DNA of 51,549 nucleotides from assembly GCA_036568605.1 (NCBI GenBank), contig DATCSE010000038.1:1-51549 (forward strand), written 5' to 3'. This DNA is from Burkholderiaceae bacterium (GTDB lineage Bacteria; Pseudomonadota; Gammaproteobacteria; Burkholderiales; Burkholderiaceae_C). Position numbers and translations under genes: made by a program. Of this stretch, positions 11,979 through 46,849 are shown piece after piece (position 1 is the first letter of the stretch; every line of letters starts with the position of its first letter). The notes under the pieces are model-generated. The model had not been told where the DNA came from, searched no databases, and was given only the letters and a program-made list of their open reading frames with translations.

Positions 11979-12974
11979 GTGGACGACCAAGGTTTGGAAA
12001 ACGCCGCGATCCTGCTGATGTCGCTGGGCGAGGAGGACGCCGCGAACGTGTTCAAGCACCTGACGCCGAAGGAGGTGCAGGGCCTGGGCGAGACGATCGC
12101 GAAGCTGAAGACGATTCCGCGCGACCGGGTCGACAACGTGCTCGAGATGTTCCACACGGTCTCGCAGGAGCAGAGCGTGCTGGTCGGCGACACCGACGAG
12201 TACGTCAAGAGCGTGCTGCGCAAGGCACTGGGCGACGACAAGGCGAACCTCCTGATCGACCGCATCCTGCAGGGCGGCGACACCTCGGGCATCGAGAGCC
12301 TGAAGTGGATGGACCCGGTCTCGGTCGGCGAGCTGCTGCGCAACGAACATCCGCAGATCGTCGCGGCGATCCTGGTGCACCTGGACTTCGACCAGGCCGC
12401 CTCGGTGCTGAAGACCTTCGGCGAGCGCCAGCGCAACGAGGTGCTGGTGCGCATCGCGACGCTGGACGGCATCCAGCCCTCGGCGCTGAAGGACCTGAAC
12501 GAGGTGATGGGCAAGGTGCTGGCCGGCGGCGAGAAGATGCGCAAGACCTCGCTCGGCGGCGTGAAGCCGGCCGCCGAGATCATCAACATGATGGGCTCCA
12601 GCGTCGAGACCGCGGTGCTGGACTACATCCGCGAGACCGACAACGACCTGGCGCAGCGCATCATGGACAACATGTTCACGTTCGACGACCTCGAGACGGT
12701 CGACGACAAGGGCATCCAGGCGCTGCTGAAGGAGATCCAGTCGGAGTCGCTGATCATCGCGCTGAAGGGTGCGAAGCCCGAGATGCGCGAGAAGATCTTC
12801 AGGAACATGTCCACGCGCGCCGCCGAGGCGCTGCGCGAGGACCTGGATTCGCGCGGCCCGGTGCGCGTCTCCGAAGTCGAAGCCGAGCAGAAGGAACTGC
12901 TGAAGGTGGTCCGCCGCCTGGCCGACGAGGGCCAGATCGTGCTGAGCGGCGGAGGCGACGATGACTTCGTCTAA
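11979..12974 (+). CDS. fliG: Flagellar motor switch protein FliG
   Basis: 331 aa, with GLENAAILLMSLGEEDAANVFKHL...EHPQIVAAILVHL...MFTFDDL...IQALLKEI. Confidence 0.97.
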   Translation: MDDQGLENAAILLMSLGEEDAANVFKHLTPKEVQGLGETIAKLKTIPRDRVDNVLEMFHTVSQEQSVLVGDTDEYVKSVLRKALGDDKANLLIDRILQGGDTSGIESLKWMDPVSVGELLRNEHPQIVAAILVHLDFDQAASVLKTFGERQRNEVLVRIATLDGIQPSALKDLNEVMGKVLAGGEKMRKTSLGGVKPAAEIINMMGSSVETAVLDYIRETDNDLAQRIMDNMFTFDDLETVDDKGIQALLKEIQSESLIIALKGAKPEMREKIFRNMSTRAAEALREDLDSRGPVRVSEVEAEQKELLKVVRRLADEGQIVLSGGGDDDFV

Positions 12975-13770
12975 TCCGTCCCTGAAGACCAAGAACATCC
13001 CCTCGCCGAACGACGCCAAGGCCAATGCCTACGCCCGCTTCATTCCGCGCGAGGAGCTGAGCTCGTTCGCCGCGTGGAGCCCCGGCGACATCGGCGATGC
13101 CGGCGCGACGCCGCACCCGCTGCGCCGCGCGACCGACGAGGCTGCGAAGCGCAATGCCGCCGCGGGCGCGGCCGATGTCGCCGAGCAGATCGCGGCGCAG
13201 ATGCGCGCGGCGCGCCAGTCCGGCTACCAGGACGGCTACCGCGACGGCCTGGCCGCGCTCGAGGGCTTCAAGCAGAGCTACACGAGCCAGACCACCGCAC
13301 AGGTCGGCGCGCTGCTCGCGTCGTTCGGCGACGAGCTTGCCGGGCTGCAGCAGGAGATGGCGCGCACGCTGGCGATCGCCGCGACGCAGCTCGCGCACCG
13401 CATCGTGCGCAGCGAGATCGGCACGCGGCCCGAGCTGATCGCGCATGTCGCGCAGGAGGCGCTGGACACGCTGATGCTCAGCGCGAAGCACATCACGCTG
13501 CGCGTGCACCCGGACGACCACGCGCTGGTCCTGCAAGGCGCGGCCGAGACGCTGCAGACGCGCGGCGCGCGGCTGCTCGCCGACGCGTCGATGGCGCGCG
13601 GCGGCTGCCTGGTCGAATCCGACATCGGCATCATCGACGCGACCATCGAGACGCGCTGGCGCCGTGCGGCCGCCGCGCTGGGCATCGACGAGCCGTGGGA
13701 TGCGGGGCATGCCGTGCCGGTGGCCGACACGTCAGCAACGGCATCCGACGGATCGGACGACATCGCATGA
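12961..13770 (+). CDS. fliH: Flagellar assembly protein FliH
   Basis: 269 aa, overlapping fliG by 14 nt. ...[19 protein letters not shown]... and ...[20 protein letters not shown] are typical of FliH. Confidence 0.88.
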
Positions 13771-13777
13771 GCAACTT

Positions 13778-13873
13778 CCCCTCACCCCTGGCCCTCTCCC
13801 GCAAGCGGGAGAGGGAGAGGACCACATCGGCTTGCTCCCTCTCCCGCTTGCGGGAGAGGGTTGGGGTGAGGGG
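13778..13873. repeat. Compound REP-like palindromic element (family A), fills the fliH-fliI gap
   Basis: Outer arms CCCCTCACCCC(13778-13788)/GGGGTGAGGGG(13863-13873) enclose two 24-nt hairpins: CCCTCTCCCGCAAGCGGGAGAGGG (13792-13815) and CCCTCTCCCGCTTGCGGGAGAGGG (13837-13860). Confidence 0.9.
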
Positions 13874-13879
13874 AGTCCA

Positions 13880-15310
13880 GTGAACACCACGGCACCGCAA
13901 CATCCGCGCACGACCGAGCCCATGCAGGCGCAGTGGCAGCGCTATCTCGGCGACATGCGCAGCTTCAGCGCCGACAAGATCGCGCTCGAGACCCAGGGGC
14001 TGCTGGTGCGCGTGACCGGCCTGGTGCTCGAGGCAGCCGGCATCCGCGTGCCGGTCGGCTCGGTCTGCGAAGTGCGGATGGAAGGCCAGGCGCCGGTGAT
14101 CGCCGAAGTCGTCGGCTTCGCCGGCGACCGCGCGTACCTGATGCCCACCGGCGACATCCATGGCCTGGCGAGCGGCGCGCGCGTCGTGCCGCGGCCGTCG
14201 CCCATCGTGCCGCTGAAGCTGGGCGCCGCACACCACCCGTGGCGGCGCAACGAGGACCGCACGCTGCACCTGCCGGTCGGCGACGGGCTGCTCGGCCGCG
14301 TCGTCGATTCGCACGGCCACCCGATGGACCGGCGCGGTCCCATCGAGCAGGTTCACACCGAGCCGCTGACGCGCCGCCCGATCAACGCGATGGACCGCGA
14401 CCCGGTGCGTACGCCGCTGGACACCGGCGTGCGCGCGATCAACGCGATGCTGACCGTGGGCCGCGGCCAGCGCATCGGCTTGTTCGCCGGCACCGGCGTC
14501 GGCAAGTCGGTGCTGCTGGGCATGATGGCGCGCTACACCGCCGCCGACGTGATCGTCGTCGGGCTGATCGGCGAGCGCGGCCGCGAAGTCAAGGAGTTCA
14601 TCGAGGACATCCTCGGCGAAGAGGGCATGCGGCGCTCGGTCGTCGTCGCCGCGCCGGCCGACTCGCCGCCGCTGGTGCGCATGCAGGGCGCGAGTTACGC
14701 GACCGTGATCGCCGAGCACTTCCGCGACCGCGGCCTGAACGTGCTGCTGCTGATGGATTCGCTGACCCGCTATGCGATGGCGCAGCGCGAGATCGCGCTG
14801 GCGATCGGCGAGCCGCCGGCGACCAAGGGCTATCCGCCGAGCTGCTTCGCGAAGCTGCCGCAGCTCGTCGAGCGCAGCGGCAACGGCGTGGCCGGCGGCG
14901 GCTCGATCACCGCGTTCTACACGGTGCTGTCCGAAGGCGACGACCAGAACGACCCGATCGCCGACGCGGCACGCGGCATCCTGGACGGCCACATCGTGCT
15001 GTCGCGCGAGCTCGCCGAGGCCGGCCACTACCCGGCGATCGACATCGAACGCTCGATCTCGCGCGTGATGACCAGCGTGGCCGAGCCGGCGCACATCGAA
15101 GCGGCGCGGCGCTTCCGCCAGCTGCATGCGCGCCACAACAAGGCGCGCGACCTGATCCAGCTCGGCGCCTACCTGCCGGGCCAGGACGCCGAGCTCGACA
15201 CCGCGGTGCGGCTGCATGGCGGCATGACCGCGCTGCTGCAGCAGAACATGCACGAGCCGGCGACGCTGGCCGCGAGCGTCGCCGCGCTGCGCGGCGTGAC
15301 AAACGCTTGA
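13880..15310 (+). CDS. fliI: Flagellum-specific ATP synthase FliI
   Basis: Walker [40 protein letters not shown]. Start is either GTG 13880 (GAGG/GGAG supplied by the repeat arm) or ATG 13922 (MQAQWQRYL). The ORF upstream of 13880 reads through the repeat and is not credible. Confidence 0.95.
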
Positions 15311-18122: not shown

Positions 18123-18172
18123 CGGCCCGCATCCCCTCGGGGGATCGACCGACGTACTCGTCGGGCGAGGGG
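18123..18172 (+). repeat. Structured intercistronic element (family B), copy 1, directly upstream of fliM
   Basis: CGGCCCGC + hairpin ATCCCC-TCG-GGGGAT + hairpin CCGACG-TACT-CGTCGG + CGAGGGG. It matches the reverse complement of 46765-46814 at 46 of 50 positions. Confidence 0.85.
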
Positions 18173-18177
18173 CTCAC

Positions 18178-19182
18178 ATGAATCAGCAGATCCTCTCGCA
18201 AGACGAAGTCGACGCGCTGCTGCAAGGCATCACCGGCGAGAGCCAGAAGCTCGAGCCGGAAGAGGTCGAAGCCGGCGCGATCCGCACGTATGACATCTCC
18301 AGCCAGGAGCGCATCGTCCGCGGCCGCATGCCGACGATGGAGATCATCAACGAGCGCTTCGCCCGCAACATCCGCATCGGCCTGTTCAACTTCATCCGCA
18401 AGAGCCCGGAGATCGCGATCGGCAGCATCAAGGTGCAGAAGTACAGCGCCTTCCTGCGCGAGATCGTCGTGCCGACCAACTTCAACATCGTCAGCGTGCG
18501 GCCGCTGCGCGGCTCGGGGCTGATCGTCTGCGACCCGACGCTGGTGTTCGCGGTGATCGATGCCCTCTTCGGCGGCGCCGGCAAGTACCACACGCGCATC
18601 GAGGGCCGCGACTTCTCGGCCACCGAGCAGCGCATCATCACGCGGCTGGTCGAGGTGATCACCGCCGAGTACAAGAAGGCCTGGCACGGCATCTACCCGC
18701 TGGAGCTGGAGTACCAGCGCTCGGAGATGCAGCCGCAGTTCGCGAACATCGCGACGCCCAGCGAGATCGTCGTCGCGACCAGCTTCACGCTGGAGATCGG
18801 CGACACCAGCGGCACGATCCACTTCTGCATTCCGTACGCGACGCTGGAGCCTATCCGCGACGTGCTGTATTCGACGATCCAGGGCGACGCGTCCGAGCCC
18901 GACCGGCGCTGGGTCAACCTGATGAAGCAGCAGATCCAGGCGGCCGAGGTCGAGCTGATCGCCGAGCTCGCGACCGCGCCGGCCACCGTCGAGCAGCTGC
19001 TCGCGTTCAAGGTCGGCGACTTCGTCGAGCTCGACCTGGCGCAGACGATCGAGGCCAAGGTCGCCGGCGTGCCGGTGCTGGACTGCAGCTACGGCACATC
19101 GAACGGACGCTATGCGCTGAAGGTCAATCAATTGCTTGCCAGCTCGCCGCAGACCTGGCTGGGAGAATCGCATGTCAACTGA
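18178..19182 (+). CDS. fliM: Flagellar motor switch protein FliM
   Basis: MNQQILSQDEVDALLQG is the CheY-P binding N-terminus. ...ERFARNIRIGLFNFIRK... Start ATG 18178 lies inside a longer ORF. Confidence 0.96.
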   Translation: MNQQILSQDEVDALLQGITGESQKLEPEEVEAGAIRTYDISSQERIVRGRMPTMEIINERFARNIRIGLFNFIRKSPEIAIGSIKVQKYSAFLREIVVPTNFNIVSVRPLRGSGLIVCDPTLVFAVIDALFGGAGKYHTRIEGRDFSATEQRIITRLVEVITAEYKKAWHGIYPLELEYQRSEMQPQFANIATPSEIVVATSFTLEIGDTSGTIHFCIPYATLEPIRDVLYSTIQGDASEPDRRWVNLMKQQIQAAEVELIAELATAPATVEQLLAFKVGDFVELDLAQTIEAKVAGVPVLDCSYGTSNGRYALKVNQLLASSPQTWLGESHVN

Positions 19183-20700: not shown

Positions 20701-20970
20701 ATGGACTCCCAACAAGTCTTCACCGCCGGCCAGCAAGGCCTGTACATGCTGCTGATGGTCTCGGCGCCCATCCTGCTGACCGTGCTGGTCGTCGGCCTGG
20801 TGGTCAGCATCTTCCAGGCCGCGACGCAGATCCACGAGGCGACGCTGTCGTTCGTGCCGAAGATCGTCGCCGCGGTCGCGGTGCTCGCGATCGCCGGGCC
20901 GTGGATGCTGACCAGCCTGGTCGAGTACATCCAGCGCACGCTGCAGTCGATTCCGACGGTGGTCGGCTGA
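20701..20970 (+). CDS. fliQ: Flagellar export gate protein FliQ
   Basis: 89 aa, with LLMVSAPILLTVLVVGLVVSIFQAATQIHEATLSFVPKI. Confidence 0.96.
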   Translation: MDSQQVFTAGQQGLYMLLMVSAPILLTVLVVGLVVSIFQAATQIHEATLSFVPKIVAAVAVLAIAGPWMLTSLVEYIQRTLQSIPTVVG

Positions 20971-20977
20971 TGCAGGC

Positions 20978-21061
20978 CCTCACCCCGGCCCTCTCCCGCA
21001 AGCGGGAGAGGGAGTGCGACTTGTCCCCTCTCCCGCTTGCGGGAGAGGGCTAGGGTGAGGG
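20978..21061. repeat. Compound REP-like palindromic element (family A), fills the fliQ-fliR gap
   Basis: Outer arms CCCTCACCCC(20978-20987)/GGGTGAGGG(21053-21061). Inner hairpins are 20989-21012 (loop-side CAAG) and 21026-21049 (loop-side CTTG), the same architecture as 13778-13873. Confidence 0.9.
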
Positions 21062-21068
21062 TCGTCGC

Positions 21069-21830
21069 GTGCTCACGTTCACCGATACCCAGGTCCTCGC
21101 CTGGATCACGCCGCTGCTGTGGCCGTTCTTGCGCGTGCTCGCGCTGTTCGGCGCGCTGCCGGTGTTCGCCCAGCGCAGCGTGCCGATGCGCGTGCGCGTC
21201 GCGCTCGCGTTCCTGATCGCGTTCTGCGCGCAGGCGTCGCTGCCGGCGATGCCGGCGATCCCGCTGGACTCGGCCGCCGCAGTGCTGGCCGTGCTTCAGC
21301 AGGTGCTGATCGGCGTCTCGCTGGGTTTCGCGGTTCGGCTCGTGTTCGCCGCGGTCGAGTTCGCCGGCGAAATCATCGGCTTGCAGATGGGCCTGAACTT
21401 CGCCGGGTTCTTCGACCCGATGAGCGGCGGCCAGACCACCGCGGCCAGCCGCTTCTTCGGCGTCTCGGTGAGCTGGCTGTTCATCGTGATGGGCGGGCAC
21501 CTGCTGCTGATCGGTGCGGTCGTCAAGAGCTTCGACGCGTTCCCGGTCGGCCCGGACCCGTTTGCGTTCCTGCGCACCGTGCAGCCGCAGGTCTGGGGCG
21601 CGGAGGTGTTTCGCCTCGGGCTGTGGATCGCGCTGCCGCTGGTCGCGATGCTGCTGTTCGTGAACCTGGTGCTGGGGATCATCTCCCGCGTCGCGTCGCA
21701 GATGAACATCTTCGCGATCGGCTTCCCGATCACCGTCTCGATCGGCCTGATCGGCATGCTGCTGACGCTGCCGATGATGCAGGTGCCGTTCACGATGGCG
21801 CTGGAGCGCATGCTCGCGTATTTCCAGTAG
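21069..21830 (+). CDS. fliR: Flagellar export gate protein FliR
   Basis: 253-aa polytopic protein, with ...WPFLRVLALFGALPVF.....P.RVRVALAFLIA... GTG start, 7 nt after the repeat arm GGGTGAGGG. Confidence 0.93.
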   Translation: MLTFTDTQVLAWITPLLWPFLRVLALFGALPVFAQRSVPMRVRVALAFLIAFCAQASLPAMPAIPLDSAAAVLAVLQQVLIGVSLGFAVRLVFAAVEFAGEIIGLQMGLNFAGFFDPMSGGQTTAASRFFGVSVSWLFIVMGGHLLLIGAVVKSFDAFPVGPDPFAFLRTVQPQVWGAEVFRLGLWIALPLVAMLLFVNLVLGIISRVASQMNIFAIGFPITVSIGLIGMLLTLPMMQVPFTMALERMLAYFQ

Positions 21831-46764: not shown

Positions 46765-46814
46765 CCCCTCGTCCGATGAGTACATCGGCCGATCCCCCGA
46801 GGGGATGCGGGCCG
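46765..46814 (-). repeat. Structured intercistronic element (family B), copy 2, directly upstream of the permease gene
   Basis: Its reverse complement is CGGCCCGCATCCCCTCGGGGGATCGGCCGATGTACTCATCGGACGAGGGG, identical to 18123-18172 at 46 of 50 positions. It has the same 5-nt spacing from GAGGGG to the ATG. Confidence 0.85.
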
Positions 46815-46849
46815 CATGGGCCACGAAGTGGGCCACTTCGTGGCCCATG
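46815..46849. repeat. Perfect 35-bp palindrome (17-bp arms, 1-nt centre)
   Basis: CATGGGCCACGAAGTGG-G-CCACTTCGTGGCCCATG, located between the SBP gene stop (46923) and the permease start (46759). Confidence 0.9.

Follow-up and report, generated by a model that had tools for sequence, protein, structure and literature searches.

The fliH/fliI junction and its ancestral state

The window analysed here is a stretch of 51,549 nt from an uncultured Burkholderiaceae bacterium, whose metagenome-assembled genome (MAG), referred to as G000, comprises 5.45 Mb in 617 contigs, is 87% complete and has a G+C content of 69%. It contains the flagellar gene row fliF, fliG, fliH, fliI and fliJ, the identities of which were confirmed with NCBIfam models. 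A long palindromic element lies between fliH and fliI, and this element is the subject of the present analysis. An earlier note on the window had described it as a pair of outer arms around two opposite hairpins between the fliH stop and fliI, and all of these sequence statements hold. A genome of the same genus, G001 (86% complete), which encodes a 97% identical FliI, was used for comparison. The features of the junction are as follows.

12961-13770, plus strand: fliH (NCBIfam FliH models, E = 6.5e-35, under the curated cut-off; G+C content at third codon positions (GC3) of the frame 0.90)
13767-13883, plus strand: full repeat unit, ATGA...GTGA, with an extent conserved across a 12-copy subfamily and flanks that are unique directly outside
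13767-13883, plus strand: open reading frame (ORF) of 38 codons, the mini-ORF, which extends from the old fliI ATG in the fliH stop overlap to a TGA that shares bases with the GTG at 13880
13771-13883, plus strand: inserted 113 nt, absent from the empty ATGA site of G001 (one continuous BLAST match over the joined flanks)
13777-13788, plus strand: left outer arm TCCCCTCACCCC, found as an inverted repeat; complementary to block three (G-rich) of the BoxC/TMECO motif (Table 1, PMC4666352)
13792-13817, plus strand: hairpin 1, CCCTCTCCCGC-AA-GCGGGAGAGGG(AG), from the inverted-repeat and word search
13818-13834, plus strand: central spacer, which varies across the family and is partly conserved in the subfamily (consensus AGACGATCGCATCGGCTTGCT, 12-copy alignment)
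13835-13860, plus strand: hairpin 2, (CT)CCCTCTCCCGC-TT-GCGGGAGAGGG, from the inverted-repeat and word search
13863-13876, plus strand: right outer arm GGGGTGAGGGGAGT, which resembles a Shine-Dalgarno (SD) sequence for the GTG at 13880 and pairs with the left arm in the modelled free mRNA
13880-15310, plus strand: fliI from its most likely start, the GTG at 13880 (476 aa; TIGR03496 FliI_clade1, 634 bits against a cut-off of 619; N-terminal extension homologous to that of G001)
13922-13924, plus strand: alternative in-frame fliI ATG, kept in G001, with a weak SD and about 50% unpaired in all modelled states

The outer arms (13777-13788 and 13863-13874, 12 nt) are 100% complementary, and so are the inner hairpins (13792-13815 and 13837-13860), which are inverted copies of each other over 26 nt and stand 17 nt apart. 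Folded as RNA, the palindrome at 13777-13874 forms a single long stem of -101.8 kcal/mol (z = -11.1), and none of 200 shuffled sequences was as stable. With 0 expected, the window contains four copies of the 24-nt hairpin, which is far beyond chance; the second pair of copies lies between fliQ and fliR. The fliH stop, TGA at 13768-13770, is embedded in ATGA at 13767-13770; the arm GGGGTGAGGGGAG ends 4-8 nt upstream of the GTG at 13880, and both this GTG and the ATG at 13922 are in the fliI frame. Beyond what had been described before, the analysis revealed that the element is a copy of a dispersed family, that the conserved unit extends past the arms and that the whole unit is an open frame of 38 codons. 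A Pfam search with the mini-ORF gave no family match, and no matching family was present in Rfam, where only sub-threshold matches to eukaryotic microRNA hairpins were obtained. No promoter-like or terminator-like site was found in or around the element.

The empty site of G001 reads ...cctcATGAgcgcc..., and at its junction (...tcggcctcATGAgcgccgccacccatcgcacccacaccgccgagcccATGcaggcgcagtgg...) fliI is read, as MSAATHRTHTAEP-MQAQW, from an ATG that shares bases with the fliH stop. In the window, ...atcgcATGA is followed by the 113 nt, the insert ends in GTGA, and acaccacggcaccgcaacatccgcgcacgaccgagcccATGcaggcgcagtgg comes next. The insertion left fliH its TGA (13768-70), and its cut is ambiguous by 0-3 nt leftward, as TGA is present at both ends. 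The two genes overlap in all ten relatives inspected, G001 and nine further genera (ATGA in seven, GTGA in one, and 8 nt and 11 nt in the other two), which demonstrates that the empty state is ancestral. The earlier note had assumed a normally tight junction and had proposed a comparison of its synteny; the former is borne out by these overlaps, and the latter showed the element to be absent from G001 and from the nine other genera. Comparison of the two congeneric genomes shows that a 113-nt subfamily copy inserted exactly in the fliH/fliI ATGA overlap after the split from the closest sequenced congener.

The GTG at 13880 stands at the ancestral start position, so the 14-codon N-terminal extension of FliI is old and the contribution of the element is limited to the start codon and the SD. 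It had been suggested that the element created both a new extension and a ribosome-binding site for the enzyme. The second part stands, whereas the extension is ancestral, since a homologous 13-codon extension is read from the ATGA overlap in G001. In several relatives, G009, G002 and G004 among them, the position equivalent to 13922 lacks a Met, and the overlap start must therefore be the real fliI start there. We infer that FliI is made from the GTG at 13880 with an essentially ancestral N-terminus. A different reading treats the palindrome as a tolerated spacer, with fliI translated independently from the ATG at 13922 and both the GTG and the mini-ORF incidental. This ATG is shared with G001, every modelled state leaves it about 50% unpaired, and a start there would presumably give an N-terminus colinear with that of Salmonella FliI. 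However, its SD is weak (GAG), the three relatives named above must start at the overlap, and both the open fliI frame from the GTG and the genome-wide peak of starts behind the right arm, described below, favour the GTG, which makes an independent start unlikely.

Logan contigs from two root-metagenome runs matched both junctions of the element without a difference (X1, 13500-13804; X2, 13843-14200), and these runs may be the samples behind the assembly. The contigs of four metagenome runs showed the filled junctions, and the precise empty-site joint was not found among them. A joint that skips 413, with sides of 21 nt, was considered as a population polymorphism and rejected, as it most likely belongs to another organism. 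A search of sequencing runs for transcripts returned the locus in DNA runs only, and one soil metatranscriptome shares 8% of the words.

A BoxC-type repeat family at ATGA...RTGA junctions

G000 contains 91 copies of the hairpin, counted with up to one mismatch, at 56-57 loci, 36 of which are doublets built like the fliH/fliI copy. The half-unit, CCCTCTCCC-loop-GGGAGAGGG-NN-GGGTGAGGG, is the intrastrand-triplex motif known as BoxC, PIT or TMECO, and its blocks are identical to those in Table 1 of PMC4666352. The published BoxC pattern consists of a 9-nt C-rich block, a short loop, a complementary G-rich block, a linker of 2-3 nt and a second G-rich block, GGGTGAGGG; TMECO no. 1, for example, reads CCCTCTCCC-TGTG-GGAGAGGG-CC-GGGGTGAGGGC (PMC4666352). 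Positions 13837-13874 of the window, CCCTCTCCC-GCTTGC-GGGAGAGGG-TT-GGGGTGAGGGG, follow this pattern. The motif has 3610 occurrences in 262 proteobacterial genomes, sometimes as tandem inverted pairs, and was described as always intergenic, at no particular distance from ORFs, with no assigned function and no link to mobile elements (PMC4666352). Earlier work on BoxC by Bergler, by Bachellier and by Hoyne & Maher is cited within Holder et al. 2015 (PMC4666352). The fliH/fliI element is a copy of a dispersed, recently active BoxC-type family, and its inverted pair of half-units is a REPIN-like doublet.

Within the family to which the window belongs, the distribution of the hairpin is very patchy, with copies in 26 of 151 genera (94 in G001; 74, 57 and 35 in three other genera). 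A search of named genomes with the exact 36-37-nt unit gave, among the matches listed, alpha-, beta- and gammaproteobacteria of the genera Roseateles, Mitsuaria, Ideonella, Variovorax, Cupriavidus, Ralstonia, Lysobacter, Stenotrophomonas, Bradyrhizobium and Rhodopseudomonas. The exact 36-nt unit was also seen, again among the matches listed, in MAGs labelled Dehalococcoidia and Elusimicrobia, which could be binning contamination or horizontal transfer.

The element belongs to a subfamily of 12-13 members. The consensus of 12 copies, ATGA-RCACCTTC-CCCTCACCCC...GGGGTGAGGG-TCGTCCA-RTGA, showed that conservation continues past the arms and that the flanks turn unique directly outside ATGA and RTGA. 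Coding strands were assigned by a log-likelihood model of codon use, for which 613 long ORFs served as the training set, as GC3 alone proved misleading for such calls. In all 12 cases the upstream frame ends at the TGA of the unit and the downstream frame starts at its RTG, with a coding-like GC3 of 0.76-0.98, and all 12 copies are co-oriented with the flanking genes. Junction-like ATGA sites, at which a stop and a start overlap, account for 307 of the 21,248 ATGA sites in the genome (1.4%). The location of at least 11 of the 12 copies at such junctions has a probability of about 7e-20, or about 7e-14 if the 5,716 non-coding-like ATGA sites were equally tolerated. Survivorship surely contributes to this pattern because an insert of 113 nt within a gene shifts its frame; it does not by itself explain the avoidance of ordinary intergenic ATGA sites.

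The joined flanks of the 12 sites and of a further copy between fliQ and fliR were combined into one query and searched against G001. Nine of the subfamily sites were located, and all nine are empty. Eight of them are a plain ATGA. One of those sites (contig C202) is a start codon without an overlapping upstream gene. Three copies, the one at fliQ/fliR and two at other loci, are common to both genomes. Together, the shared copies and the empty sites indicate that the family was active before and after the split of G000 and G001. Identity between subfamily copies is approximately 90%, and coding flanks are 75-89% identical between the two genomes. With TGA repeated at both ends and nine empty sites, the element resembles a miniature inverted-repeat transposable element (MITE). 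A literal 4-bp duplication of ATGA was rejected, as the right copy is GTGA in 8 of 12; it is more likely that R is the last base of the element and that the duplication is TGA.

A reading at the level of DNA is suggested by the E. coli repeats, which form triplexes in vitro and mark variable regions, with no role in expression found there (PMC4666352). The block composition of the present element is compatible with an intrastrand purine-motif triplex. The palindrome might accordingly be a triplex or cruciform that causes local instability, without translational consequence and in an accidental position. An accident, however, cannot explain the location of 12 out of 12 copies at ATGA junctions, the fixed spacing between arm and start or the in-frame mini-ORFs, and we regard this explanation as very improbable.

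The fliQ/fliR copy is the second one in the window.

20978-21060, plus strand: fliQ/fliR copy; fliQ stop at 20968-20970, fliR GTG at 21069, 8 nt past the arm; FliQ and FliR confirmed

This copy is filled in both G000 and G001 and is therefore an older insertion. The fliQ stop is overlapped by an ATG (TGATG, 20968-20972), which opens a frame of 27 codons through the copy; this frame ends at TAG 21051-21053 and stops 15 nt upstream of the fliR GTG. Five subfamily copies (contigs C202, C290, C379, C508 and C564) contain a nested palindromic insertion, ACGGGCCACGAAGGGGCCCTTGGTGGCCCC, which sits in the hairpin 2 loop and whose 27 nt are a multiple of three. It resembles a palindrome, GGGCCACGAAGTGGGCCACTTCGTGGCCC, at 46815-46849 of the window. 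An unrelated repeat, at 18123-18183 and 46765-46814, likewise has an SD-like GAGGGG at its end, after which CTCAC and ATGA come at the fliM start; this points to a second family in the genome with the same junction habit.

Proposed translation across the element

Start codons were found at a fixed distance from the right arm. Of the 159 arms in the genome, 31 have an ATG or GTG exactly 7 nt past GGGTGAGGG, where the background is 2.8% per position (P = 1.5e-17), and 21 have RTGA there (background 0.49%). No other offset is prominent. The proposal that the right arm is the ribosome-binding site of fliI and the GTG at 13880 its likely start is thus strengthened by the recurrence of the arrangement at other arms, as well as by the ancestral position of the codon. 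G001 has 24 and G080 has 19 instances of the arm-N7-start arrangement; it is rare in two other high-copy genera, which makes it a trait of the subfamily. In G080, another genus of the same family, a 19-copy subfamily reads GGGTGAGGG-AYGGCGC-ATG (e.g. C85:3234-3264). As its spacer differs, the arrangement arose or was kept there with a different spacer.

The mini-ORF runs in frame from RTG(A) to (R)TGA at 17 of the 19 loci that have RTGA at both ends; at the other two it ends early, at the TGA of the arm itself. These in-frame mini-ORFs span 11 distinct lengths of 108-174 nt, including the nested 27-nt insertion in five copies. The naive binomial probability of the in-frame rule is 6e-7, and that by length class is 8e-5; both overstate independence, as the copies share ancestry. 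At three loci (C82:328-490, C88:2290-2425 and C234:11302-11425), the upstream frame continues through a multi-hairpin BoxC array and stops at the TGA of the right arm, 16 nt before the start of the next gene. The proteins encoded there consequently have C-terminal tails derived from the repeat.

Modelling of the RNA suggested how translation might proceed through the element. The modelled unpaired fraction in the free mRNA is 1% for the SD core and 7% for the GTG; a ribosome footprint at the fliH stop covers the left arm and raises the value for the SD core to 60%. The old fliI ATG (13767) now heads a mini-ORF of 38 codons through the whole palindrome, and the new GTG at 13880, overlapped by TGA 13881-83, stands where the old start joined the fliI coding sequence. 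The right arm provides a GA/G-rich SD 4-8 nt before this GTG. By one route, ribosomes that end fliH would begin again at the overlapping ATG, melt the hairpin as they translate it, terminate at GTGA and then initiate on fliI, in a relay of two -4 overlaps like that proposed for MIRUs, the interspersed repetitive units of mycobacteria. By a second route, a ribosome at the end of fliH would cover the left arm and thereby free the right arm with its SD. The two routes would be additive, such that fliI translation probably remains coupled to fliH, and in untranslated mRNA both the SD and the GTG would be buried. The internal ORF may be translated and may drive downstream translation.

The earlier note had anticipated the masking of the SD by the paired arms, and the modelled free mRNA agrees (probability of being unpaired, 0.01). 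The note went further, suggesting a structural control point on FliI synthesis. Under that explanation the palindrome would be retained as an evolved control in which sequestration of the SD, for example in response to temperature, a protein or a small RNA, tunes FliI relative to its regulator FliH. The burial of the SD and GTG fits, and so does a change just before the start: this copy has GGGGAGTCCA against GGGTCGTCCA in the subfamily consensus, by which the arm pairing is lengthened to 12 bp and GGAG is created. The same element type is nonetheless found at a dozen unrelated operon junctions and is absent from fliH/fliI in the congener and nine other genera. Furthermore, neither a site for a trans-acting factor nor an alternative conserved fold is evident, and the ancestral ATGA coupling already ties FliI synthesis to FliH. 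We therefore find such a control point quite improbable.

An effect on the RNA itself would be another explanation. The perfect duplex of about 45 bp could be a site at which RNase III separates the fliFGH message from that of fliIJ, or the stem could stall terminating ribosomes and lower FliH. The stem is long and perfect, and the left arm begins 7 nt past the fliH stop. The Correia (NEMIS) elements of Neisseria reportedly contain RNase III sites, and E. coli REPs within 15 nt of a stop codon are said to stall terminating ribosomes. Such an effect would harm many other junctions, yet the copies persist there. It is also compatible with the relay and not exclusive of it. As the main effect of the element we consider it rather unlikely, while some effect on mRNA processing or FliH termination is possible.

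Candidate mobiliser, interpretation and comparison with known systems

To our knowledge, no function and no means of spread have been known for BoxC/TMECO repeats for 30 years. The REPIN definition, two inverted REP-like units that form a hairpin and occur in many copies (PMC3116915), fits the doublets, which could on this basis be classical REPINs copied by a REP-associated tyrosine transposase (RAYT; Y1 transposase, PF01797) through single-stranded hairpin intermediates. PF01797, however, was not found in G000, with its 87% completeness, or in four of five other high-copy genomes (G001, G076, G116 and G149), despite 34-94 hairpins in each. It is present in 95 of 151 genomes overall and shows no association with hairpin load across the 151 genera. 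REPINs were moreover described as randomly placed in extragenic space and not at start codons (PMC3116915). Copying by a RAYT is accordingly highly improbable here.

A different enzyme was associated with the repeats. The Vsr-like nuclease domain PF04480 (DUF559) is encoded by exactly one gene in the genome (contig C605:11199-11695), in which it spans residues 37-143 of 165. The first 36 codons of this ORF cross a complete BoxC doublet and the last 22 codons cross a half-unit. The gene sits between two co-directional genes, one ending in ...GKPVRN-stop and the other starting with MSKQVQDAYIVAATRTPIGK, the latter judged by eye to be thiolase-like. Strong DUF559 hits and the hairpin co-occur over the 151 genera (14/7/12/118; odds ratio 19.7; Fisher P = 3e-8, uncorrected for phylogeny). 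In other genera, the nuclease domain is bracketed by the exact motif at 4 of 12 loci, compared with 0 of 28 control loci. The DUF559 nuclease is therefore a candidate mobiliser, not a demonstrated one. We tentatively propose, at less than even odds, that BoxC/TMECO repeats are the non-autonomous ends or derivatives of a DUF559-driven cassette that homes to RTGA stop/start overlaps of operons, and that the doublets evolved an SD, a start and an in-frame relay ORF by which the coupled translation of the host genes outlasts the insertion.

The occurrence of the same element at a dozen unrelated junctions, and its absence from this junction in the closest relative, point to a selfish insertion and not to a regulator specific to the flagellum. 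Our preferred interpretation, to which we assign a probability of roughly 0.65, is a selfish MIRU-like insertion that is nearly neutral at operon junctions, where it preserves translational coupling; it would not be a flagellar regulator, and the DUF559 nuclease is the best candidate for its mobiliser.

Several observations weigh against this interpretation. With regard to mobilisation, the DUF559 link is correlative and the genomes compared are phylogenetically related. The BoxC units around the nuclease are arranged opposite to those of the doublet, and the nuclease lies beside a doublet and not inside one. G001, with 94 hairpins, gave no DUF559 hit in an assembly that is 86% complete. With regard to the target, a preference is inseparable from survivorship, as insertions elsewhere would be lost, and the length of the target duplication is ambiguous (TGA, 3 bp, or 4 bp). 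With regard to the relay, common descent of the copies inflates the in-frame counts, and several of the length changes are duplications of a 6-nt-periodic tract. In two of the 12 subfamily copies (C309 and C564), which are evidently tolerated, the frame is broken and terminates at the TGA of the arm, 13 nt short of the start. The fliQ/fliR copy of G001 lacks an overlapping start for a relay ORF, and a stem of -100 kcal/mol could stall ribosomes instead of being melted. Finally, fliI translation could begin at the ATG at 13922, either in place of the GTG or in addition to it, as this ATG is shared with G001 and accessible in the model.

For the flagellar operon, the outcome is deflationary, in that the palindrome is an insertion, apparently not a regulator, and FliI probably retains its ancestral N-terminus. 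For BoxC repeats, it provides sites that are cleanly empty or filled, the ATGA overlap as a defined target and a fixed geometry to start codons, in addition to a testable way of being harmless, through the two-step relay and the unmasking of the SD, and a candidate mobilising enzyme. In the annotation of GC-rich proteobacteria, starts 7 nt past GGGTGAGGG are probably real, and 'hypothetical proteins' annotated from such mini-ORFs would be relay ORFs and not genes. If the proposed DUF559 homing is true, it would represent a proteobacterial counterpart of the MIRUs and a general rule for selfish DNA that colonises operon junctions.

The element has the same three blocks as BoxC/PIT/TMECO, in the same order, and shares with it a multi-copy, partly tandem inverted arrangement across proteobacteria (PMC4666352). 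The hairpin stem is 2 bp longer (GC..GC) than in E. coli BoxC. While the E. coli repeats are intergenic with no fixed ORF distance, those described here have a 7-nt spacing to the start, a mini-ORF that is read through and clean presence or absence at ATGA junctions. Likewise, they are not always intergenic, given the start-codon peak 7 nt past the arm and the genes that read through at C82, C88 and C234. Similar to the REPIN/RAYT system (Bertels & Rainey 2011, PMC3116915), the doublet consists of two inverted REP-like units and a spacer, forms a long hairpin, is non-autonomous and reaches a high copy number. It differs in that the high-copy genomes lack a RAYT, with the one exception among those compared, in that the extragenic distribution is non-random and in that the candidate partner is a DUF559 nuclease. 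The Correia/NEMIS elements of Neisseria and the Rickettsia palindromic elements (RPEs) are MITE-like palindromes as well and are transcribed together with genes. The target of Correia elements is TA, and they bring promoters and RNase III sites; RPEs lie inside genes and are read in frame as peptide. We know of neither targeting stop/start overlaps.

MIRUs insert at start codons, and their internal ORF is coupled at -4 nt (Supply et al. 1997, summarised in a 2025 review of translational coupling, PMC12548453). The likeness to the present element lies in the small size of the repeats, their position at operon start codons and an internal ORF that overlaps the neighbouring stop and start by 4 nt, an arrangement that would maintain translation of the downstream gene. 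Insertion at a start codon was found for 12 of 12 subfamily copies, and the overlapping internal ORF at 13767-13883 and at 17 of 19 junction loci. MIRUs are unrelated in sequence and phylum, and they are direct, often tandem units of 40-100 bp (variable-number tandem repeats, VNTRs) and not long palindromes; the element here is palindromic without direct tandem units, and it also has an SD masked by its own stem. By sequence, the fliH/fliI element is a BoxC/TMECO doublet, and by behaviour it is a MIRU-like junction insertion that preserves coupling.

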